From a virus, in IMG/VR virus record IMGVR_UViG_3300044644_001125, positions 83,623-147,622 of that record: 64,000 nt of DNA; one strand, given 5' to 3'. Below, piece by piece: positions 16,339-62,995 of the stretch. The notes beneath the pieces were generated by a model. It was not told where the DNA came from. It ran no database searches and was given only the letters and a program-made list of their open reading frames with translations. The position numbers and the translations under genes are program-made. How positions within the stretch are numbered: position 1 is the stretch's first letter; every line of letters starts with the position of its first letter.

Positions 16339-16409
16339 TGTAGTAACTCCGTAGTGCTTTGTTAAGGTGGGTACATTGTATTCTCAATGTACCCATTTGT
16401 CAAATCTTT

Positions 16410-16604
16410 TTATCCGATTGCTTGTAACAAGTACGCGTATGTGATTTCTTTCTTCGTTCCTTTTGGTAAACCTAGCAACTGGCAAGCCATTGTATTAGCC
16501 GATTTTCCACGACCTTTCAATCCTTTGATTTCTAATCCAAGTGCTGATTTCAAGGTTAATAACTGGAATCTGTTGATTTGTTCTGGTGTAGTTAATACGC
16601 TCAT
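16410..16604 (-). CDS. hypothetical basic small protein
   Basis: 64-aa ORF. Upstream: hairpin-A8-TTGACA...TATACC-leader. Confidence 0.5.
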   Translation of the reverse strand: MSVLTTPEQINRFQLLTLKSALGLEIKGLKGRGKSANTMACQLLGLPKGTKKEITYAYLLQAIG

Positions 16605-27269: not shown

Positions 27270-27686
27270 TTAGTCAAGGCTATTGATGAAATCGGTATAT
27301 TTGGTTTTGTATTTTGGGTTAAGTTGAATCGCTGGTTCGCCTAGTTCGAAACGCCCTTTAATAACTTCTGAAGCATACCAGTAAGAGTATGATGCACCAG
27401 TTGCAATCGCTGGTTCGCCTAGTTCGAAACGTCCATTAATAAAATCAGCATATTCATAAGATGTTTCTGCGTCGGTTGCAATGGCAGGTTCGCCTAGTTC
27501 AAAACGTCCATTGAGTATACTACACGCATAACAGTAAGCACTTCTCGGATCTGATGCAATAATCTCTACAAGTTCTGGAATGCGAGTATGCGTTTCCTCG
27601 TCGGTGTAAGCCTGGCGAATAGTGTCTAAAATATCGAGTGCTGCAAGCGGTGTTGGTTTAGAAGGTAAGGTGAGTTGAAAAGTCAT
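27270..27686 (-). CDS. tandem-repeat protein (3 x ~30 aa INGRFELGEPAIAT..)
   Basis: Protein-level repeats mirrored by DNA repeats gctggttcgcctagttcgaaacg at 27330-27530. Confidence 0.55.
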   Translation of the reverse strand: MTFQLTLPSKPTPLAALDILDTIRQAYTDEETHTRIPELVEIIASDPRSAYCYACSILNGRFELGEPAIATDAETSYEYADFINGRFELGEPAIATGASYSYWYASEVIKGRFELGEPAIQLNPKYKTKYTDFINSLD

Positions 27687-40514: not shown

Positions 40515-41822
40515 ATGACTATTTATGCCAAAATTTTAGCAACAAAAGAACACAACGAACGTCAACTAAGAATCTACGTAAAATACATCGCAAAATGTGC
40601 AGTATTAAACGAGAATCTTTCAGAAGATACCTACACAGAGCTTCATCATATCTGCCCTAGAGTATTCTTTCCTGAATACAAAAATCTAAAAGATCATCCT
40701 TGGAATGGGATACGATTAACACTAGGCCAACACTTCACAGCCCATTTGATTCTTTCAAACGCATATACGTTTAACGGTGCTATGTCTCAAGCATTTTACC
40801 TTATGTGCACACAGAATGGAAGTAAAGGTCAAGCAGTTGTTGATAGGTTCAAAAACTTGAAAACCTACTACGAAGATGCTCGTAACCTAGTCATCAACTC
40901 TCAACGCGGTTTAACTATGGTTAAAAACAAAGAAACCGGTGTGTTTGGTCTGATTCCGGTAGAAGAGTACACTGCAAATCCTGATTTATACGAAACTGCC
41001 ACTACTGGCATGGTAACAGTTCGCGATATTGAAACCGGTGAAATAATGAGTATGTCATGCGAAATTTACCACGCGAATAAGGACAAGTTTACTGCCATGA
41101 ATACTGGAATCGTGCACGTCACAGACAAATTGACTGGTGAGAAGAAACGCATACCATCAGAAGAATATCAAGCAAATAAAGAAAGCTACACAACTTCTGG
41201 GTCTGGAGTGACTACTGTTAGAGAATTAGCAACTGGTATTGTAATGAGTGTACCCGTCGATGAGTACTCAAACAATAAAGATCGATTCGAAAGCATTGTT
41301 ACTGGAACTACAACTGCAAGATTAATAAGCACCGGTGAGATGGTTGTTATCCCAGTAGAAACATACCATGCAAATCGTGATTTATACGAAACTGCTACTA
41401 CTGGTCTATTGACTGCAAAAAACAAATTAACAGGTGAATCTGTTAGATTGACCAGAGAGGAATATGAGGCAAATAAGGATTTGTATCACTTCCACACATC
41501 TGGAGTGTCAGTTATATCGACTATTACCGGTAAGAAATCGCGCATATCATGGGATGAATTTGAAAACAATCCTACCTTGTATTATAGAGTAAGCAATGTA
41601 CGGTCAATATACGAACTAGGGAGTTACTCAAAACCAATAGATTATGTAAAACTACCACACGAAGTCAGTAATAAGTCCAGTTGGGTTCATAACCCAACCA
41701 CTGGTGAATGTAAAAAGATATCAAAACACGAATACGTTGAATTAGATTGGTTAGCTGGTATCACACCAGAATATAAAAAACAATTAGAACGTGAACGTTA
41801 CCATGCTAACAAAGTAAAGTAA
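40515..41822 (+). CDS. HNH homing endonuclease with C-terminal ~28-aa tandem repeats
   Basis: MTIYAK..ELHHICPRVFF..WNGIRLTLGQHFTAH (HNH). At least 8 repeats of TG..T(V/A)R..(E/T)G. Conserved leader AAGGATAAATAAG..CGGAT..GGC shared with 48072-49133. Confidence 0.7.
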   Translation: MTIYAKILATKEHNERQLRIYVKYIAKCAVLNENLSEDTYTELHHICPRVFFPEYKNLKDHPWNGIRLTLGQHFTAHLILSNAYTFNGAMSQAFYLMCTQNGSKGQAVVDRFKNLKTYYEDARNLVINSQRGLTMVKNKETGVFGLIPVEEYTANPDLYETATTGMVTVRDIETGEIMSMSCEIYHANKDKFTAMNTGIVHVTDKLTGEKKRIPSEEYQANKESYTTSGSGVTTVRELATGIVMSVPVDEYSNNKDRFESIVTGTTTARLISTGEMVVIPVETYHANRDLYETATTGLLTAKNKLTGESVRLTREEYEANKDLYHFHTSGVSVISTITGKKSRISWDEFENNPTLYYRVSNVRSIYELGSYSKPIDYVKLPHEVSNKSSWVHNPTTGECKKISKHEYVELDWLAGITPEYKKQLERERYHANKVK

Positions 41823-49183: not shown

Positions 49184-50386
49184 TTAGTCTGTATAGTGAA
49201 CGGTTTGTCCATACGAAGCGGTAGCGGATTCATTACCGAATACGATAAACAATGTATCCACTAGTTCACCGATGGCTGGCACCTCGTCGCTCACATACAG
49301 GTCAGTAAAATTAAGGAGTTTTTTAGGGCTTAGATTATTCTCTTTTAGGTATTCTAAAATACATCTATAATCTGTGCCACCACCACCAACTGGTTCATAA
49401 GTTAACAAATCACCAGCATTGTCATGCGTAATTAAAATTGGATTGTAAATGTCAACATCATAACAGAATAAATGAATTTTATAATCAGTATACTGACTCA
49501 TGATACCAGAGATCTCACCTAAGAATATAGAGATTTCGTTTTGTCCAATAGATCCACTCATGTCTAAAGCAATTGCAATGTCAATCGTTTGTTCTGGAAT
49601 CATACCAGGTAGAATAGCTCCAGATGCCCAACCTTTACGACTAGGTCTACTGAATGAATAGTTACTACGAACAATCGATTGAATGTTCATCTGTAATAGT
49701 TCACGCCAATTCATTTTAGGTTCAGTCATATCTTGAATCAGTCTTTTAATAGCAGCAGGTACATTACCAGCGGCGGCCGCATGTGCTTGGACCATCGCTT
49801 CTTTCAAAGAATCTCTGATCTCCTGCCATTCTGCTTTTGAAAACTTAGGTCTACCGCTACCTTCTTTACCATCTTCGTCGCCGTCGCCATCACCGCTATC
49901 ATCTTGAGAGAGGTGGTCGTCTAATGAATCCATGCCTGCGAGTATGTCATCGAGTGACACTACGGTCGCGTTTTCAATAAGTAATTCGTAGATCTCCTCC
50001 CAAGATTTTCCACGATAGACTGGATCCAAGCACAGAGGAACTTGATCAATAACCGTTCCAATCTTTTCATCTACGAGCAGTATGTTTATGGCGAAATCTT
50101 GGGCTATATTTGACAACCGAGCATCTCGTGAGCCACGCCGCAAAAAATGTTCAAAACAAATGTGAAGAATCTCATGACCGAATAAGAATTCAAGTTGTTT
50201 AACTGATAGTTTTTCAACGAATTCGGTGTTGTAATAGAAGTCTTTCCCATTAGTGGCCGCCGTTTGGCACCACGAACTGCTCTCCACAAGTTTCATCCGA
50301 GATGCCAAATTACCAAAAAAGCTAGCCCGTAGCATGAGACCGATGCGAGCAACCGTGAGTTTTTCTTCGATGGGAGTTAGTAACAT
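49184..50386 (-). CDS. vWA domain protein with N-terminal HExxH (DUF2201-like) domain; partner of MoxR ATPase
   Basis: FGHEILHICFEHF. C-terminal MIDAS IDIAIALDMSGSIG. Acidic linker. Confidence 0.7.
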   Translation of the reverse strand: MLLTPIEEKLTVARIGLMLRASFFGNLASRMKLVESSSWCQTAATNGKDFYYNTEFVEKLSVKQLEFLFGHEILHICFEHFLRRGSRDARLSNIAQDFAINILLVDEKIGTVIDQVPLCLDPVYRGKSWEEIYELLIENATVVSLDDILAGMDSLDDHLSQDDSGDGDGDEDGKEGSGRPKFSKAEWQEIRDSLKEAMVQAHAAAAGNVPAAIKRLIQDMTEPKMNWRELLQMNIQSIVRSNYSFSRPSRKGWASGAILPGMIPEQTIDIAIALDMSGSIGQNEISIFLGEISGIMSQYTDYKIHLFCYDVDIYNPILITHDNAGDLLTYEPVGGGGTDYRCILEYLKENNLSPKKLLNFTDLYVSDEVPAIGELVDTLFIVFGNESATASYGQTVHYTD

Positions 50387-50895: not shown

Positions 50896-51180
50896 TTAAG
50901 CTAAGATAGCCAGTACGTCATCTTCGATCATCTGGGTTAGGGTATCATCGTCGATTTTGATATCAGTACCAGCGGTTTTAAGGAATAGAACACGGTCACC
51001 GACTGCTACGTGCATTGGTCTTGTAGAGCCATCTGGCATTTCCTTACCTGGACCAGCTGCAATGACTTCACCGATACTTGGTTTTTCGGCAGCAGCACCA
51101 GGGAGTACAATACCGCCTGCGGTAACAGTTTCAGTTGGAATCTTTTTGATAAAGAGTCGGTCGTTTAAAGGTTGAATCAT
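50896..51180 (-). CDS. groES: GroES-family co-chaperonin
   Basis: MIQPLNDRLFIKK..AGGIVLPGAAAEKP..GEVIAAGPG..VGDRVLF. Alignable by eye to E. coli GroES over its full 94 aa. Confidence 0.8.
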   Translation of the reverse strand: MIQPLNDRLFIKKIPTETVTAGGIVLPGAAAEKPSIGEVIAAGPGKEMPDGSTRPMHVAVGDRVLFLKTAGTDIKIDDDTLTQMIEDDVLAILA

Positions 51181-51237: not shown

Positions 51238-52323
51238 TTACTTATCTGACATCGCTTGGATGATCAATTTGCCATATTTTTCAGAGAACTGGTGGAATGA
51301 AGGCATTTTGGTTGCATCGAATGGTAAGTTATAAGATACCAAGCCGGTTCTTGCACCCATCACAACTAATTCAGTTGGGAAGTTAGCCATCATGTAGGTA
51401 AAGAAGTTGTTAGCCATGTCATTCCAACCGGCTGCTTTCTTGTCAGCACGATCTTTTAACTCGTAGCAAAGTGAAATAGTCAACGAGTACATAGCTGAGA
51501 TTTCTTTAACGTCTAGTTTAGTTACTTTACCATCTAAGATATCATCAGCAGTTGGCATTTTACCAGCGATTTTGCGATGAGCCATAAACTTGATACTTAG
51601 ACCATCACCGATAGCACCAGCAACTAAGGTATGTAAGGTTTCGCTATCGATAGTAGATTCATCATCTAGCAATTCAGATACGAAAGACCAAGAGCGTGGT
51701 GTAGCGAATGCTTTACTAGAGCTTGCTGGTTTAAAGTCATACAAGTCTTGTTTAGCAAAACCCAAGTAACCAATAACTTCAGGATGGATTTGGTTTTGGA
51801 TTGCCCATTCTTGCCAGTCATCGAAATCTGTGGTAGTTTCCAAATGGACGAAACGGTTTGCTAGAGGACTTGGCATACGGAATGTTACACCTCTATCGCC
51901 ATCGCGGTTACCAGCTGCCACAATATCTACACCTTCTGGTAAGACATAGTTACCTACTCTACGGTTTAAGATAAGTTGGTAAGCAGCGGCTTGAACTGCT
52001 GGTGGTGCTGAGTTTAATTCGTCTAAGAAGAGAATCGCAGTTGATTCTGGATCACTAGGTAATTCAGCAGGTTCTGCCCATAGCATGGTTTTAGCTTCTT
52101 GGTTGTAATAAGGAATACCTTTGATATCGGTAGGTTCCCAGAGTGCTAAACGGATGTCAATAACTTCACGGTGTTGTTCTTGACCGATTTGTTTGACCAG
52201 ATCCGACTTACCAATGCCTGGTGCGCCCCAGACAAAAATAGGACGGCGTTTTTTGATTGAGTGTTGAATTGCTTTTTTTGCTGCTTTAGGGCCAACTAAA
52301 CGTGTGCTGATATCTGTGCTCAT
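51238..52323 (-). CDS. MoxR-family AAA+ ATPase (CobS/CbbQ-like)
   Basis: Walker A VWGAPGIGKSDL. Walker B ILFLDELN. 361 aa. Adjacent to vWA partner. Confidence 0.75.
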   Translation of the reverse strand: MSTDISTRLVGPKAAKKAIQHSIKKRRPIFVWGAPGIGKSDLVKQIGQEQHREVIDIRLALWEPTDIKGIPYYNQEAKTMLWAEPAELPSDPESTAILFLDELNSAPPAVQAAAYQLILNRRVGNYVLPEGVDIVAAGNRDGDRGVTFRMPSPLANRFVHLETTTDFDDWQEWAIQNQIHPEVIGYLGFAKQDLYDFKPASSSKAFATPRSWSFVSELLDDESTIDSETLHTLVAGAIGDGLSIKFMAHRKIAGKMPTADDILDGKVTKLDVKEISAMYSLTISLCYELKDRADKKAAGWNDMANNFFTYMMANFPTELVVMGARTGLVSYNLPFDATKMPSFHQFSEKYGKLIIQAMSDK

Positions 52324-52406
52324 TGTAATCTCGCTTTTGAAGTTAATGTTAAGGGTTTTTGTAAATCAGGTTGTAGTTTAAATCTAAAAGATGATGTTGT
52401 CAATCT
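52324..52406 (-). promoter_or_regulatory. type-B-spacer promoter (TTGACA-ACATCATCTTTTAGATT-TAAACT)
   Basis: The 12-mer in reverse orientation occupies the -35/-10 spacer. The same promoter repeats at 52674-52760. Confidence 0.5.
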
Positions 52407-52673
52407 TTATTTTAGAGTTTTTGAAATCTTTTCTGCTGGAATGCTCCATTCTTTCATTGTTCCATTATCAAATGTATTCTTTACGTAAGCAAAGAAACGT
52501 TTTTGCAATGCAGGATCCAACGAGTCCAATTTTTGTCTGGCGCTTGGAATGTCAATTATTTCTGATTTAAGCAACGCGGACCAAGAAATAGAAAGATCTC
52601 GTAGTTCTGCATCGGTAAATTCAGATGCATTGTTTTCTGGTATGATTAAAGAATCGATAATGTCAGTAGTCAT
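52407..52673 (-). CDS. hypothetical protein
   Basis: 88-aa ORF with identical promoter to MoxR gene. Confidence 0.5.
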   Translation of the reverse strand: MTTDIIDSLIIPENNASEFTDAELRDLSISWSALLKSEIIDIPSARQKLDSLDPALQKRFFAYVKNTFDNGTMKEWSIPAEKISKTLK

Positions 52674-53023
52674 GATATTTACTCCAGTATTAATGTTAAG
52701 TGTAGTTTAAATCTAAAAGATGATGTTGTCAAGTATTTAATTTGGTTCGTTTCATCTTGGGTTACATTCTATTCCTAAAAGATAATGCTGTCAAGTGTTA
52801 TTTTCTAGGTTTCTCGTCTCGGTGACGATGTGGCTATTATAGACTAAAATTAGATGTTGTCAACAGTTATTTTCAAAAAGTTTTCTAAACTGTTATTCAA
52901 TTATCTTTTAGGTCAATACTGCCAACCACGAAACGAATCATACACTATAGGTATATAGGTGTCAACTGACTTTAAATAAAATCATACTAAATACAATATA
53001 TCATTACCACTTGAACTAATAAA
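52674..53023. promoter_or_regulatory. non-coding region with four CTAAAAGAT(G/A)ATG(T/C)TGTCAA repeats preceding tnpB
   Basis: Copies near 52713, 52774, 52838 and 52900 (the last inverted). Confidence 0.4.
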
Positions 53024-54360
53024 ATGACCAGCATCATCAAAACCAGTCAACATAGTACCAAGTTTGCCAATACAGGCAAGCAGGATATATTGTCTGAATT
53101 TTTAACCGAATATGATAGAATGATATGGTGGTTTGTTGATTACTTATGGGAAACTAAGATCGTGTGGGGATTAAATCAAGTACTAGACGTGAAGAATAAT
53201 CGTTTAGATGTACCTAATTTTATCAATACCGCAGATATAGAATACCATTCCGATTTATCAGCTAGGGCTATAAAATTAGCATCTAGCGAAGCTCTCGCGT
53301 TAGTCAAAGGGCAAACAGAAAAAAGAAGAAAGCAATTCCACGTTCTAGCTAAAAACATGAAAATGGGAACTGTCGGAGAGGTTAAACGACTTCAATCAAA
53401 AATAGATAGCAATCCTCTCACAAAACCAACTACTAATTCCAAAAACCCAAGTGCTAGACTCGATAGTATGTGTTGCAAGTACATACCAACAGAATCGTCA
53501 ATATTCGATGGATGGCTTAAACTCAAATCGATTGGTAAGGTATACGGTCATATCTTCATTCCAATTAAGTTAACCAAACATTCTAATAAGTTAGCCAAGA
53601 AAGGATATTCGATGATGACAACTTGGCGCATTTGTAATAATGTGGTTTCTTCGACTTGGCAAATTGAAAGAAAACCAAGCAGTGGAACTAAAGTTTTAGG
53701 CGCTGACCAAGGAATTAGTACGTGTCTATCACTAAGCGATAGTCAGACCACTGGGGTTTGTAAACATGGACATGATTTAAAATCAATTATAAATAAGCTA
53801 TCAAAAAAGAAAAAGGGTAGTAAGGCTTTTGCTAAGGCACAAGCCCATAGAACCAATTATATCAATTGGTCAATTAACCAATTAAACCTACAAGATGTCA
53901 AAGAACTCAGGCTTGAAAAGTTATTTCAGATGAGGAAGGGTCATAATATAGGTAAACTATTAAGTCATTGGACTTACACACAAATCAATGCACAGATAAA
54001 AAGCAGATGCGAGGAACTAGGCGTCCTAGTTACCGAGCAATCCGCTGTTTATAGAAGTCAGAGATGCAGTGATTGTGGTTGGACGCAGAAATCAAATAGG
54101 AAGGGAAAGGAGTTTATATGCAAGTCATGTGGCCATCACATCGATGCGGATATAAATGGCGCCCTTAATCACGAAGTGGACTTATATCCGCTCCCTATGG
54201 GATTTCGTCATTTGAATATGAATAGAAAAGGTTTCTTTTGGTATGAAACCCAGCTATTCGATTCAACTGGTCAGGAGATTACAGTCCCTGACGTGAAAAA
54301 TATATAACTGTCAACCTTTTTCATAAGTATTAACATTGTATAACTGTCAATCGTTTTACG
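52940..54360 (+). mobile_element. putative TnpB-only IS element (IS1341-like); ends not defined
   Basis: tnpB on opposite strand to flanking backbone genes. TATAACTGTCAA direct repeat at 54304-54352 downstream of stop. Confidence 0.35.
53024..54307 (+). CDS. tnpB: IS200/IS605-family TnpB (OrfB) RNA-guided nuclease homolog
   Basis: C-terminal zinc finger CSDCGW..CKSCGH. RuvC-III IDADINGALN. 427 aa. No adjacent tnpA. Confidence 0.8.
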   Translation: MTSIIKTSQHSTKFANTGKQDILSEFLTEYDRMIWWFVDYLWETKIVWGLNQVLDVKNNRLDVPNFINTADIEYHSDLSARAIKLASSEALALVKGQTEKRRKQFHVLAKNMKMGTVGEVKRLQSKIDSNPLTKPTTNSKNPSARLDSMCCKYIPTESSIFDGWLKLKSIGKVYGHIFIPIKLTKHSNKLAKKGYSMMTTWRICNNVVSSTWQIERKPSSGTKVLGADQGISTCLSLSDSQTTGVCKHGHDLKSIINKLSKKKKGSKAFAKAQAHRTNYINWSINQLNLQDVKELRLEKLFQMRKGHNIGKLLSHWTYTQINAQIKSRCEELGVLVTEQSAVYRSQRCSDCGWTQKSNRKGKEFICKSCGHHIDADINGALNHEVDLYPLPMGFRHLNMNRKGFFWYETQLFDSTGQEITVPDVKNI

Positions 54361-54953
54361 TGATTTAATTTCGTAGTATGATCCACATTGACTGATTTGA
54401 TACTAGCATCAATATGATAGTGACCGTCTATAAACTCACGATTCCAAAATTCAACTAAGGTTTCACCTAGGATGGCTGTGACTTTATACTTACGATAGTT
54501 CTCGTTATAAACACAAGACACAACGGTAATCGTATCTATAACTTTATCACCAACATGGCCTGGTAAGGTTAGATAGGGTGTCATATCAACTGTTTGTCGT
54601 ACCAAATCCATTTGCATTACCATTGGTAGACAAGCAACGACCGAAAACTCAAAAAGATGATGGCTTGTAAATGTATCCATTTGAGCAATCTTTAGTGCTA
54701 GGTGTTGGAATTCTGATATGGTACCTGCGATTTCTAGGAACAGGTATCCTTTGATATGATTACGGCAATCGATAGCGGCTTGGTAGTCTTCATCGGTTGC
54801 TGGAATCTTATTCGTATAAAGCCATTGTTTGATTAGGGCTTTATTTGAAAGACGTGGAGATTCTGAACTCCATTCGTCTGAATTTTGAAGATACTCTCCA
54901 TTGATTCGTTGGGCGGCGATAGCAGCTGCCCAAACTTGTTCGGCCTTGAACAT
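54330..54953 (-). CDS. hypothetical protein
   Basis: 207-aa ORF. Confidence 0.55.
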   Translation of the reverse strand: MFKAEQVWAAAIAAQRINGEYLQNSDEWSSESPRLSNKALIKQWLYTNKIPATDEDYQAAIDCRNHIKGYLFLEIAGTISEFQHLALKIAQMDTFTSHHLFEFSVVACLPMVMQMDLVRQTVDMTPYLTLPGHVGDKVIDTITVVSCVYNENYRKYKVTAILGETLVEFWNREFIDGHYHIDASIKSVNVDHTTKLNHVKRLTVIQC

Positions 54954-56959: not shown

Positions 56960-57265
56960 TTAATTACAAAAAACATTTGGTGATGCTGTTATGATGACTG
57001 CATCATAAGGTCCATCACCGATCTTATCACCGAGTCTCGCGGTGTGTCTGTTGGTACTGGTATTACCAGATGCCGTTATAATAATACTGGTATGTCCACA
57101 ATCTGTTTCAACTGTATCACCTAATCTAGCAACTTTTCGATTATTAGCAGATACGTTACCGGATGCAGTAATAATCTTGCCAGTTGTTTCAATTGGTGAA
57201 GCATGTGACGAATGTGAACAAGTACCTTGTGTTGTATCGCCTAGTCGTGCTACGCCTCTAGCCAT
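56960..57265 (-). CDS. PAAR-repeat spike-tip protein (T4 gp5.4-like)
   Basis: Three VARLGD / ITASGN(V/T)S repeats; 101 aa. Confidence 0.75.
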   Translation of the reverse strand: MARGVARLGDTTQGTCSHSSHASPIETTGKIITASGNVSANNRKVARLGDTVETDCGHTSIIITASGNTSTNRHTARLGDKIGDGPYDAVIITASPNVFCN

Positions 57266-59613: not shown

Positions 59614-60585
59614 ATGAGATTGTACGAATTAAAAGAATCCCAATACACCCGAGATGAGTTACTAGAACTTGACTGGGATGAGCTATGCGAAATGGCCTAT
59701 GGAGTCAAGACAGGTGATATTATCCAACTTGATCCACGAAAAATCAAAATCAAATATACTGATATGGAAAATCCACAGGACTTATTCAACAAGTATGGAA
59801 TGGCTTGGGTTCGTACTGTTAAATTTGATGAGCCAGTTCAGGTATCTCTAGGATTGGATGGGAATCATACTAAAGAAGATTGGTATTTAGAAGATGGGCA
59901 TCACCGAGTATTCGCTGCTCGTAAACTAAAAATGCCAACTATCACCGCTGAAGTGGAACGCATTAACTTAAAAGCGGTTGAGAAGTTACTTGGATTTCCC
60001 AATGCGAAAAAACGTCGTATCAAAGAAGATGAAGATTATCGCGGTGAGCATACCGCACCTTATAATAATGGATATGATAGACCGTTACATGATTTGACTG
60101 GTATCTATCCAGATGATATCTACACGAGTAATGCTGCTAGATTATATAGTTCAGGTGAATCTTACGACAATGCAAGTATTAGTATCATGCAAGGTGCGCG
60201 TGGTAGACCTAATCAAGCAATTAAAATCTACCGCGCCGTACCTCACGAGTTAACCAACGATGAATTAATCAAAAAGTATGAAAAAGAAAAAGCTCTGATG
60301 CTTAAAACTGGTAGACTTCCAACTGGTATCACTGGTTATACGAAAAGTCAGTACTACGAGTTTGTATCCAATGAGCTAGATCGATTAGCTAATGCACCTG
60401 CCACTGCTGCTACCAAAATAGGAATCAATCCAGGTGATTGGGTTTCTATTTCTAAGCAGTATGCTATTGATCACGGTAGAGCAAATCTTGGTAACAAGTT
60501 TAAAGTTATCACCAAGACTGTTAAAGCAAAAGACTTGTACACCGATGGTAACTCGATCCATGAATGGGGCTATTCCCCAATGTAA
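59614..60585 (+). CDS. ParB/sulfiredoxin-domain (ParB-like nuclease) protein
   Basis: WYLEDGHHRVFAARKL contains the DGHHR ParB N-domain motif. 323 aa. Confidence 0.65.
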   Translation: MRLYELKESQYTRDELLELDWDELCEMAYGVKTGDIIQLDPRKIKIKYTDMENPQDLFNKYGMAWVRTVKFDEPVQVSLGLDGNHTKEDWYLEDGHHRVFAARKLKMPTITAEVERINLKAVEKLLGFPNAKKRRIKEDEDYRGEHTAPYNNGYDRPLHDLTGIYPDDIYTSNAARLYSSGESYDNASISIMQGARGRPNQAIKIYRAVPHELTNDELIKKYEKEKALMLKTGRLPTGITGYTKSQYYEFVSNELDRLANAPATAATKIGINPGDWVSISKQYAIDHGRANLGNKFKVITKTVKAKDLYTDGNSIHEWGYSPM

Positions 60586-61495: not shown

Positions 61496-62239
61496 ATGAT
61501 TTCACAGTTAACAGTATACAAGCAAGCACTACTAATGGCTCAACTGAGCAATTTAGCATATAACGATAACCAACTGTTTAACGACTTTGGTTATGATAGT
61601 ATTTTTCTATCAACGAACGATTCAGAAGCCTATTTCCTTTGGAATGGTAGCGATGCTATCATTGTATGCCGTGGTACACAACCGACTCAATGGAATGACA
61701 TAAAGACAGATTTAGAATTTAAACTAGTTCCAAGTAGCAGCCATCATGGATTGGTTCATCATGGATTTAAACAATATGTAGACAACGTTTGGCCTGATTT
61801 ACTTATCTTATTGAAAAAGTTTGGAAGCAATAGACAACTTTGGTGTACGGGTCATAGTTTAGGTGCAGCGATGGCAACCTTGATTACGTCAAGATGCCAT
61901 CAATTAACTTATCTACAAAATCCAGTGCTATTCACATTCGGTAGCCCAAGAGTCGGTAATGCTGAATACGTTGAGTTTATGAATAGTTTGAATATCGAAC
62001 ATCATAGATGGGTTAATAACTCGGATATCGTTACTAGAAATCCAATAGGCAGTTATATTCATCATGGTGAATTAAATTACATGGACCACGATGGACATGT
62101 AGCAGTGATGAGTTGGTTGCGTAGAGTGATTGACAGATTAAAAGGATTTTGGGTTGGTATTAAGAAAGGCCAGATTAACTTCTATGAAAACCATTCTATT
62201 ACCAACTACGTCAGGAATTTACAGGAGATATCAAAATGA
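61496..62239 (+). CDS. lipase class 3 (alpha/beta hydrolase)
   Basis: CTGHSLGAAMATL nucleophile elbow. FGSPRVGN. 247 aa. Confidence 0.7.
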   Translation: MISQLTVYKQALLMAQLSNLAYNDNQLFNDFGYDSIFLSTNDSEAYFLWNGSDAIIVCRGTQPTQWNDIKTDLEFKLVPSSSHHGLVHHGFKQYVDNVWPDLLILLKKFGSNRQLWCTGHSLGAAMATLITSRCHQLTYLQNPVLFTFGSPRVGNAEYVEFMNSLNIEHHRWVNNSDIVTRNPIGSYIHHGELNYMDHDGHVAVMSWLRRVIDRLKGFWVGIKKGQINFYENHSITNYVRNLQEISK

Positions 62240-62433
62240 AGAAACTAGTAGTTGTTCTTGCGTTATTAATGTCAGGTTGTGCTGCCATTAAAACAACAGA
62301 GTTAATATTATCAGAAGTAGTTGCGGATTACTGCAAGGCCCCAGAAGCAGGTAGAGCAATCATCCAAGCACAGGTTCATTCAGTGCTTGATCCTAACACA
62401 ATCAAAATTGTGTGCGCTGCTGACCAACAGTAA
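62236..62433 (+). CDS. small lipoprotein
   Basis: MKKLVVVLALLMSGC lipobox. 4-nt overlap with the lipase gene. Confidence 0.5.
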   Translation: MKKLVVVLALLMSGCAAIKTTELILSEVVADYCKAPEAGRAIIQAQVHSVLDPNTIKIVCAADQQ

Positions 62434-62440
62434 TTTGCCG

Positions 62441-62995
62441 ATGACTAAAGTTAGTTCAGGCTCGTTACTTATTGCACCACCTACATTTCCAGAAGGATGT
62501 TTCACTGAAACAGTTCATTTGGTAACACACCATACAAAAGGTGGTACTTTTGCACTTTGCTTAAATCAACCAACAGACTTGACACTTCAAGATGTTTTAG
62601 TTGACTTGAATATCGCGGCTGATGTTAACTTTCCAATGTATTGGGGTGGTCCAGTAGATCCAACTTCGGTTTGGATGCTACATGATGCTGAATGGGAATG
62701 TGGTAGTACAATTCAATTTCACAAAGATTGGGCAATGACTTCTAATAAAGACATGCTTTACATGATGGCTGATGGGAATGTTCCCAAATATTTCAGACTC
62801 ATGTATGGTTTTTGTTCTTGGGGTAGAGGTCAACTAGAAGCAGAATTGGCTGGGAATGAACCTTGGTCACCTAATACTTCTTGGTTAATTGCAGATAATC
62901 CAGACCCCTACTGGGTAATGGAAGAACCAATAGAAGACTTATGGCATTCAGCTACTATGCTAAGTGCACATCAAGCAGTAAACAAATGGCTTTAA
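62441..62995 (+). CDS. YqgE/AlgH family (UPF0301) protein
   Basis: Start at ATG 62441 (MTKVSS). LLIAPP..F..TV.L..H...G..G...N.P...YWGGPV motif set. The six-frame ORF extends upstream into the previous gene. Confidence 0.6.
   Translation: MTKVSSGSLLIAPPTFPEGCFTETVHLVTHHTKGGTFALCLNQPTDLTLQDVLVDLNIAADVNFPMYWGGPVDPTSVWMLHDAEWECGSTIQFHKDWAMTSNKDMLYMMADGNVPKYFRLMYGFCSWGRGQLEAELAGNEPWSPNTSWLIADNPDPYWVMEEPIEDLWHSATMLSAHQAVNKWL

Follow-up and report, generated by a model that had tools for sequence, protein, structure and literature searches.

What maintains a transposon-type nuclease gene in the genome of a large phage, on the strand opposite to that of the genes around it? This question is raised by a stretch of 64,000 nt from the virus record IMGVR_UViG_3300044644_001125 (positions 83,623 to 147,622 of the record; hereafter the window, numbered from its first letter), which comes from a large phage, a distant relative of Pseudomonas phage PA5oct (52% identity between the MoxR-type ATPases). 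Within it, tnpB (53024-54307, 427 aa, ATG start) lies on the plus strand among minus-strand genes, so that, as a first, sequence-only reading had stated, it is inserted against the backbone. That reading had proposed a TnpB-only mobile element that could be either selfish cargo or a domesticated RNA-guided function. TnpB genes are already known to be common in phage genomes (PMC12607003 and references therein). With a probability of roughly 0.6, we consider the segment 52963-54347 to be a non-autonomous but functional IS607-type TnpB element, which is kept and spread by presumed RNA-guided cutting of alleles that lack it.

To define the element, we compared the window with three syntenic lineages of related phages lacking the insertion, and this comparison fixed its limits at 52963-54347 on the plus strand. 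The 1,385 bp comprise a short left end, tnpB, and a structured right end. The site had been placed between the MoxR operon and an AAA ATPase gene; it is in fact within the last codons of an intervening minus-strand gene of 207 aa with no assigned function (54330-54953), which was the insertion target. The 207-aa protein has seven homologues (58-92% identity), and empty sites were read from the contigs of three such homologues (92%, 79%, and 71% identical), representing the element-free lineages L030/31, L027-29, and L032/33. On these contigs the MoxR gene directly follows the 207-aa gene at a distance of 160-317 nt, with no tnpB, and synteny with the window extends over 5-11 kb at 72-86% DNA identity. 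In silico removal of 52963-54347 made the window collinear with all three empty alleles and restored a 207-aa protein ending in KRLTPIYL, as in L030; the L027 counterpart ends in KRLTPVYL (C-termini were compared for L030 and L027). The protein now ends in KRLTVIQC, encoded by the right end of the element, with its length unchanged, and the former end of the gene (LTPIYL and its stop codon) is left as a vestige at 52946-52966 on the minus strand. In window orientation, and with a slash at the insertion point, the empty alleles read ...CTAAAGGTATATAGGTGT/CAAGCGTTTTA... in L030, ...GGAGT/CAAGCGTTTTACGTGATTTA... in L027, and ...TCTGT/CAAGTGGG... in L032. The junctions of the window read ...CTATAGGTATATAGGTGT/CAACTGAC... 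on the left and ...TTGTATAACTGT/CAATCGTTTTACGTG... on the right. Backbone homology to the empty loci resumes at 54339-54346. Since both junctions have CAA after TGT, the boundary is ambiguous by as much as 3 nt. The event was precise: the target was not duplicated, and nothing was gained or lost. Presence and absence among syntenic relatives, together with copies of 75-79% identity at other sites, show that the element is mobile, and the precise insertion and the filled and empty alleles bear out the TnpB-only mobile element of the sequence-only reading. For the two small flanking proteins, no relatives were found in IMG/VR.

A protein search yielded 495 TnpB relatives of about 400-450 aa, many of which come from contigs 200-335 kb long. 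Nearest to the protein of the window is P0002 (79% identity; L095/L096), which is encoded directly behind a 193-aa Resolvase-domain protein, and in L006, L004, L005, L008, L009, and L014 a protein with a helix-turn-helix (HTH) and PF00239 (2.8e-22) is encoded upstream, its gene overlapping the start of tnpB. These TnpA-bearing relatives span identities from 79% to about 38%, and three others (L010-L012) retain fragments of the serine-recombinase TnpA gene. An HTH/Resolvase TnpA followed by TnpB is the architecture of IS607 (PMC6188088, PMC10690162). Since the nearest relatives stand next to a serine-recombinase TnpA, upstream of or overlapping tnpB, the clade is by this sequence evidence of the IS607 type, and the original assignment to IS200/IS605, with its Y1 transposase, has to be given up. 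No Y1 transposase was found in the window, the relatives carrying a serine recombinase instead, and TnpB is present only once in the 64 kb. The window copy is thus a TnpA-less derivative. Other TnpA-less copies were found in L024-26 (77% identity; backbone about 80% identical to that of the window, at a site equivalent to window position ~16.7 kb), in L022/23 and L097 (75% identity each; a third and a fourth genomic context), and in L007, which shares its locus with the TnpA-bearing L008. We tried window positions 16.4-16.7 kb as the empty allele of L024 and dropped them, the divergence being too great to define the ends of that element. As TnpA-less copies occupy several sites in related phages, movement must have taken place after, or independently of, the loss of TnpA.

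Several genomes carry multiple copies: five were counted on a single 290-kb contig and two on each of three others (IMGVR_UViG_3300022871_000506, with L016/L019, and two more). Scanning with two peptide patterns, we found 58 loci among 2.9 million viral contigs. The same patterns gave only three loci in 185,579 bacterial and archaeal species genomes (one genome per species), all on contigs of metagenome-assembled genomes (1.9, 9.8, and 59.6 kb). The clade is therefore mobile and essentially phage-restricted, with many members on contigs of jumbo-phage size, and its sequence relationships place the element in a branch of IS607 that is uncharacterised and found almost exclusively in phages.

The contig with five copies (IMGVR_UViG_3300029288_000059, 290 kb) holds members of a sister subclade (L048, L057, L061, L064, and L067). 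Four of them (L057, L061, L064, and L067) have a left end of ~125 nt in common, TGT/TAATTAAC..., the right ends of all five read ...T(A/G)ACTGT, and in L064 TGTCAAT is common to the left junction and the right flank. Five copies on one jumbo-phage contig suggest active proliferation within a phage genome.

The TnpB hallmarks that had been recognised in the 427-aa open reading frame (ORF) are all present, namely the zinc-finger motifs CSDCGW (aa 348-353) and CKSCGH (aa 366-371), with C348, C351, C366, and C369, and the RuvC-III motif IDADINGALN (aa 373-382). In a Pfam scan the protein matched PF07282 (Cas12f1-like_TNB) with 55.9 bits (cut-off 26.3); the match to OrfB_IS605 was weak, the IS200_TnpB model NF038281 gave 36 bits against a cut-off of 425, and the PHROG families 12300 and 506, both annotated as transposase, were also hit. 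The putative catalytic residues are D228 in GADQG, on a predicted beta-strand (RuvC-I candidate; 53705-53707), E298 in LRLEKL (RuvC-II; 53915-53917), and D376 in DADING (RuvC-III; 54149-54151). In an alignment of 46 proteins, E298, D376, and all four zinc-finger cysteines were invariant and D228 was kept in at least 90%; the choice of D228 follows from its motif, its conservation, and the guided_TnpB profile alignment over aa 121-382. The Cas12f motifs IQMEDL and NADxNA, which we take to hold the RuvC-II and RuvC-III catalytic residues, align with E298 and D376. The loss of catalytic residues that the sequence-only reading had named as the mark of an inactive remnant was not seen. In the IS607 TnpB ISFba1, the catalytic residues are D194/E290/D371 (PMC11061315). 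In a Foldseek search, a confident AlphaFold2 model (pLDDT, predicted local distance difference test, 91) matched over its full length AsCas12f (1.3e-16), ISFba1 TnpB (8iaz; 7.8e-12), and Fanzor2 (1.1e-9). Taken with the model, these data indicate a TnpB with the TnpB/Cas12f fold, its RuvC triad and zinc finger all apparently intact. Ratios of nonsynonymous to synonymous substitution (dN/dS) of 0.17-0.24 between the window copy and seven relatives, other TnpA-less copies included, indicate purifying selection on the protein. No near-identical DNA was found among 50,697 deposited phage records, where the best protein matches were only about 25% identical; an identical TnpB is on record on a 327-kb contig, and identical proteins come from several metagenomes.

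The omega-RNA, the guide RNA of TnpB, had been expected to originate at the 3' end of tnpB and the element's right end, and an omega-RNA-like structured module, with a covarying hairpin and a conserved terminus, is indeed present there. In the window, hairpin 1 (54270-54292, plus strand; GTCAGGAG-ATTACAGT-CCCTGAC, 7 bp with a bulged A), a candidate for the omega-RNA core stem, lies inside the last tnpB codons (GQEITVPD). It is followed on the same strand by an A-rich linker (54293-54300), a weak, AU-rich hairpin 2 (54301-54342), and, adjoining it, the terminal ACTGT (54343-54347). The relatives have the same order after their conserved GF(F/Y)W codons: hairpin 1, an A-rich linker of about 9 nt, hairpin 2, (T)AACTNT, and then unrelated flank. 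The loop-proximal part of hairpin 1 is conserved across the family (GGAG-yTTAyAG-TCCC), and the outer stem shows compensatory changes (CAGG/CCTG, GCGG/CCGC, CGGG/CCCG, GTGG/CCAC, TCGG/CCGG, and others). Hairpin 2 is unrelated in sequence from subclade to subclade, and its stems almost always end 5-6 nt before the end of the element. Over 43 distinct right-end sequences, 84.8% of the hairpin 1 cells were paired, and double-sided changes were counted in 63 cells, compared with 18.1 +/- 2.9 after shuffling (0 of 500 shuffles reached the observed value) and at most 17 in controls with slid partners. RNAalifold predicted hairpin 1 unprompted, with compensatory changes in six of its seven pairs and the bulged A; in the last ~300 nt of the same 43 sequences it gave no further conserved helix upstream of hairpin 1. 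In 26 sequences the helix is closed by G-U, a pair that would become a mismatch on the opposite strand; the structure is therefore one of the sense strand. L015 and L066 keep hairpin 1 even though their ORFs end ahead of it, so its conservation goes beyond coding constraint. For the segment between hairpin 1 and the terminus, the family has a mean z of -2.2 against shuffles, with 26 of 43 sequences below -1.5. The minimum free energy (MFE) fold of 54262-54347 itself contains hairpin 1, the linker, hairpin 2, and five unpaired terminal nucleotides. To judge from covariation, then, the right end is a family-conserved, sense-strand structure that ends in ACTGT. A search of Rfam, at the gathering threshold and with E up to 10, gave no relevant match, neither RAGATH-18 nor another guide-RNA family.

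Synonymous sites point in the same direction. Among six close elements, identity at synonymous codons was 0.45-0.65 over aa 50-240 and 0.8-0.94 from aa ~250 to the end, and the proportion of synonymous differences (pS) was two to three times lower in the last 50 codons (0.18-0.31) than in the rest of the gene (0.44-0.57). The highly conserved stretch covers about 530 nt (53770-54307), longer than a typical guide-RNA scaffold, and a milder effect was seen over the first ~50 codons (53024-53170). The low synonymous change at the 3' end fits an overlapping RNA; right-end DNA sites or recombination between elements could also cause it.

A direct repeat had been noted in the 3' flank. It is real, at coordinates 1-2 nt away from those first given: the exact 12-mer TATAACTGTCAA occurs at 54303-54314 and 54339-54350 on the plus strand, and its 10-mer TAACTGTCAA is found exactly at these two places only in the 64 kb. 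It is not, however, a simple feature of the flank, since the second copy is the terminus of the element (...TATAACTGT up to 54347, followed by the backbone CAA). The first overlaps the tnpB stop codon and forms part of the 5' arm of hairpin 2, and both copies begin within inserted DNA. The first copy resembles the 5' arm of hairpin 2 in L006, where a comparable pair occurs (GATAACTCGG ... TCTAACTGT), and AACTGTCA is found twice in L047, 39 nt apart. We considered a partial duplication of the right end, the remnant of an earlier element, or carried donor flank as sources of the first copy. The first TAACTGT (54305-54311) was also tried as the right end and rejected, because backbone homology resumes only at 54348, no hairpin 2 would be left, and the distance to hairpin 1 would be 19 nt, compared with 23-71 nt in the relatives. 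On the same three grounds, 54347 is taken as the true end.

Canonical IS607 elements insert at GG, end in GG, and have target-adjacent motifs (TAMs) such as TGGG or AGGAG (PMC10690162, PMC11061315, PMC13565253). The window element ends in ...ACTGT and its 5' flank in ...GGTGT, that is, in GT rather than GG. GGTGT (52958-52962, plus strand) is backbone immediately 5' of the element and a candidate for both the TAM and the recombination core (..GT); GGTGT/CAAG is present in the L030/31 empty allele. Comparison between copies gave the left flanks AGTGT, TGTGT, and GGTGT (L008, L009, and L007), GATGT, TGTGT, AATGT, and AATGT (L057, L061, L064, and L067), and GGTGT and CGTGT (L095 and L006), with GGTGT (L024) and GATGT (L097) as provisional additions. 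About 15 relatives have a left flank deduced to end in RTGT, with the proviso that for most elements the boundary comes from copy similarity, by which flank and first element bases are inseparable, and that only the left boundary in the window is fixed by an empty site. On the right, every element of the subclade to which the window copy belongs ends in CTGT, and sister subclades end in ACTAT or ACTCT. From these sequences we infer a GT core and a TAM of the RTGT type, by which an empty site (RTGT and target) would differ from an occupied one (CTGT and the same sequence). The shared-dinucleotide logic of IS607 holds; the dinucleotide differs.

Immediately 3' of the right end, 54348-54367 (plus strand, CAATCGTTTTACGTGATTTA) is the predicted guide-encoding flank; its role is proposed by analogy (PMC8612924, PMC10055086), and the guide length of ~16-20 nt is likewise assumed from known TnpB systems. 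The L027-29 empty allele matches 19 of the 20 guide positions and has GGAGT at the TAM position, whereas L030/31 (15 of 20, five mismatches) has GGTGT and L032/33 (15 of 20) has TCTGT. The five bases before the insertion point thus vary among element-free lineages despite being coding sequence; they could be escape variants or ordinary variation.

At the other end, the 5' leader of tnpB (52963-53023, plus strand, 61 nt, its boundary taken from the empty-site comparison) resembles in its last ~45 nt the leaders of the TnpA-less L024 (5 of 300 shuffles as high) and L007 (8 of 300). The idea that a canonical left terminus is retained was dropped, the match GGTGT..CTTyAAwTAAAAT being no better than those of shuffles. 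Upstream of the element, 12-mer repeats had been taken as a hint that it is decayed or repurposed. The repeats (52369-52421, 52698-52750, 52760-52812, and 52829-52881) are real; on the minus strand they read TTGACA-N16/17-TAnAAT, that is, as sigma-70-type promoters, and in a promoter scan five sites on this strand matched the consensus at 10-12 of 12 positions. The motif NGTTGTCAA is found again ahead of minus-strand genes along the whole window, and the upstream repeats are also found in relatives without the element. They therefore belong to the backbone and are uninformative on decay of the element, whose boundary at 52963, 61 nt before the ATG, leaves these promoters outside. One backbone promoter (TTGACA-N17-TATGAT, 52937-52965, minus strand, 11 of 12 matches) has a -35 box that spans the left junction; from its place within the last part of the 207-aa gene it is directed at the MoxR operon. 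The TGT/CAA junction is the -35 TTGACA on the minus strand, which is already present in the empty alleles and intact after insertion. The insertion thus looks nearly neutral, as both the length of the 207-aa gene and the promoter are kept. In L024 and L097, too, the TnpA-less copy sits directly next to the -35 box of a promoter that points leftward. Four strong promoters stand in tandem within 260 bp (52965-52937, 52863-52836, 52794-52766, and 52732-52704), all pointing toward an 88-aa ORF and the MoxR operon.

The mechanism that we propose is modelled on ISDra2, GstTnpB, and CboTnpB (PMC8612924, PMC10055086, PMC10690162), and precedents exist for TnpB homing and for IS607 TnpB (PMC10055086, PMC10690162, PMC11061315). 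The tnpB mRNA would be processed into an omega-RNA consisting of hairpin 1, the linker, hairpin 2, ACUGU, and ~16-20 nt of flank (CAAUCGUUUUACGUGAUUUA, starting CAAUCGUUUUACG). The TnpB-RNA complex would then recognise an RTGT-type TAM next to a sequence matching the guide, a combination expected only in element-free genomes, as in the carrier CTGT precedes the guide-matching DNA. Empty alleles would be cut in a co-infecting related phage, or after excision, and recombinational repair from the carrier genome would copy the element in (homing) and drag flanking markers along. The original insertion and jumps to new sites would require a serine-recombinase TnpA acting in trans from an autonomous relative, with a crossover at a GT core instead of the canonical GG. 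In the literature searched, homing between co-infecting phages appears only as a theoretical possibility (PMC13565253).

A number of results weigh against such an active element. The absence of TnpA from the window, already noted in the sequence-only reading, was confirmed by tblastn with the TnpA proteins of two relatives, and the promoter scan showed no sigma-70-like plus-strand promoter before tnpB. Between the leader and the left end of the TnpA-bearing L095, the similarity is non-significant (77 of 300 shuffles as high). In the window copy hairpin 2 is weak, the segment between hairpin 1 and the terminus has a z of +0.26, and the MFE fold of the single window sequence is non-significant (z -0.72). 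None of the empty alleles found combines an RTGT motif with a perfect guide match, and a search of JGI metagenome contigs for an ideal target (GTGT and a near-perfect guide match, one position free) returned only an unrelated chance match. The duplication of the 12-mer TATAACTGTCAA is a further point on this side. Finally, the protein scores 73.5 bits with the NCBIfam model guided_TnpB, under the cut-off of 100, and 20 bits with IS607_TnpB, for which the cut-off is 350; given the former score, it is a divergent member of TnpB.

These observations lead to the question of whether the locus is an immobile remnant without function, in which TnpA has been lost, TnpB and its RNA are unused, and the whole persists because it is harmless. 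The missing TnpA and tnpB promoter, the dissimilar left end, the lack of a perfectly matching empty allele with a TAM, and a hairpin 2 that is degenerate both here and in L024 would all suit a remnant, as would the unchanged length of the interrupted gene and the intact neighbouring promoter. We nevertheless regard it as unlikely, because the 427-aa ORF is uninterrupted with all its catalytic and zinc-binding residues, the low dN/dS extends to comparisons with other TnpA-less copies, hairpin 1 and the ACTGT terminus are intact, the identical protein occurs in several metagenomes, and related phages carry TnpA-less copies at several different sites. Less probable again is a domesticated RNA-guided function, either a weapon against competing relatives or a regulator at the adjacent promoters. 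Here the absence of TnpA, the position next to the -35 box of a strong backbone promoter, as in L024 and L097, and the near confinement of the clade to phages can be cited in favour, and there are precedents in the TldR proteins, which are domesticated TnpB regulators (PMC10705468), and in an intron endonuclease that acts in phage competition (cited in PMC13565253). TldR proteins are nuclease-dead, whereas the RuvC triad here is intact, and the position varies among related phages, for which reasons a TldR-like role was rejected. More generally, absence from the closest syntenic relatives and variable position form the pattern of a mobile element and not of a fixed gene, and the guide would merely be the local flank. 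Cutting of competitors is compatible with homing, so that this explanation overlaps in part with ours. Of the two roles first suggested, selfish cargo is thus favoured over domestication.

That the protein is instead a miniature effector of the CRISPR-Cas12f type is highly improbable. Its best sequence and structure matches in the Protein Data Bank (PDB) are Cas12f proteins; against this, Tandem Repeats Finder detected no CRISPR-like array in the window, the relatives have a serine-recombinase TnpA next to them and show the behaviour of insertion sequences, and 427 aa is a typical length for TnpB. The non-autonomous, functional IS607-type element therefore remains our preferred explanation. 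A more speculative extension of it, which we put forward only tentatively and hold to be rather doubtful, is that a phage-adapted IS607 lineage uses TnpB and a miniature guide RNA, embedded in the end of the ORF, for two purposes: as a natural RNA-guided homing drive when jumbo phages co-infect a cell, and as a weapon with which to attack competitors. TnpA-less copies would then spread by homing alone, the RTGT-type sites recognised would in this phage often coincide with -35 boxes (TGT/CAA being TTGACA on the other strand), so that insertion would regenerate the promoter, and GGAGT and TCTGT in the empty alleles would be escape variants.

Other features of the window lie outside the element. 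The 88-aa ORF (52407-52673, minus strand) is absent from all syntenic relatives and is flanked by direct repeats of the promoter module (52369-52421 and 52698-52750, with the identical stretch AAATCTAAAAGATGATGTTGTCAA), as though recombination between repeated promoter modules had added or removed a gene cassette; a similar extra cassette is found at 16374-16600 between repeats of GTAGTGCTTTGTTAAGGTGGGTA. A plus-strand gene at 40515-41822 (435 aa), also against the backbone, matches PHROG 655 (homing endonuclease, 4.9e-19) and PHROG 12434 (HNH endonuclease), with no Pfam match, and looks like a second selfish nuclease gene in the same genome region, this one protein-guided. Further plus-strand ORFs encode a caspase-like peptidase C14 (42355-43110, 2.3e-20), a class-3 lipase (61496-62239), an AlgH-like protein (62321-62995), and a ParB C-terminal domain (59614-60585), all of them unusual phage cargo. 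On the minus strand, the MoxR-type AAA ATPase (51238-52323), a GroES-like Cpn10 (50896-51180), and a DUF2201 metallopeptidase/VWA protein (49184-50386) lie near one another without being strictly adjacent, and every relative has kept all three. A PAAR-motif protein is assigned to 56960-57265 (minus strand) from the annotation of relatives, and a 75-nt tandem repeat (27322-27512, 2.5 copies, 82% matches) lies inside a minus-strand ORF.

Compared with IS607 itself (H. pylori IS607 and C. botulinum CboIStron; PMC6188088, PMC10690162), the family shares a TnpA gene of ~200 aa with HTH and Resolvase domains that, in the relatives, overlaps tnpB, precise insertion with neither target-site duplication nor long terminal inverted repeats, one dinucleotide that ends both the 5' flank and the right end of the element, and TnpA-less derivatives beside autonomous copies. 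It differs in using GT (AT or CT in the sister subclades) instead of the strict GG, in lacking TnpA in the window copy, in its occurrence almost only on phage contigs, and in its poor score with the NCBIfam IS607_TnpB model. With ISFba1 TnpB (PDB 8IAZ; PMC11061315) it has in common the overall fold, the RuvC D/E/D triad, and the zinc finger, and a guide would by analogy be expected from the sequence past the right end. The ISFba1 RNA has a 187-nt scaffold that lies wholly outside the ORF and contains RAGATH-18, and its TAM is AGGAG (PMC11061315); here, by contrast, there is no RAGATH-18 match, the conserved hairpin lies in the last codons, the element ends just 40 nt past the stop codon, and the candidate TAM is RTGT.

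As in ISDra2 and other IS605 elements (PMC8612924, PMC10055086), the proposed omega-RNA overlaps the 3' end of tnpB and takes its guide from the flank, and an empty site bearing the TAM would be cut and the element then re-copied by recombination. Spread that depends on TnpB and not on TnpA has been reported for plasmids, as discussed in PMC13565253. Unlike in ISDra2/IS605, the partner transposase of the clade is a serine recombinase and not a Y1 HUH enzyme, no subterminal pair of DNA hairpins was recognised, and the similarity to ISDra2 TnpB is weak (E 4.5e-4). The element also resembles the free-standing homing endonuclease genes of phages (T4 Seg/Mob, and the ORF at 40515-41822) in being a single nuclease gene against the backbone, present or absent at one locus in syntenic relatives, and expected to spread in co-infection with co-conversion of flanking markers. 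Its target, however, would be recognised by an RNA copied from the flank and not by the protein, and, as with homing introns, an interrupted site would be what distinguishes self from non-self. Cas12f (type V-F; AsCas12f, PDB 8J12/7WJU) provides the best PDB matches and has the same RuvC-II/III and zinc-ribbon motifs, whereas the context here is that of a transposon, with no CRISPR array.

Homing driven by TnpB has already been demonstrated for bacterial IS605 and IS607 elements. What this locus adds are defined filled and empty alleles, non-canonical ends, and a non-canonical RNA module. It offers a natural test case, in which a filled/empty polymorphism, an apparently intact nuclease, a predicted guide with a candidate TAM, and both autonomous and non-autonomous relatives are available together. 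The compact right-end RNA module (~80 nt from hairpin 1 to the terminus, overlapping the ORF), the GT ends, and the T-rich candidate TAM, RTGT, matter for the mechanism of this family as well as for tool-building. If the proposed activity is true, an RNA-guided class would join the homing nucleases that shape the mosaicism of phage genomes.

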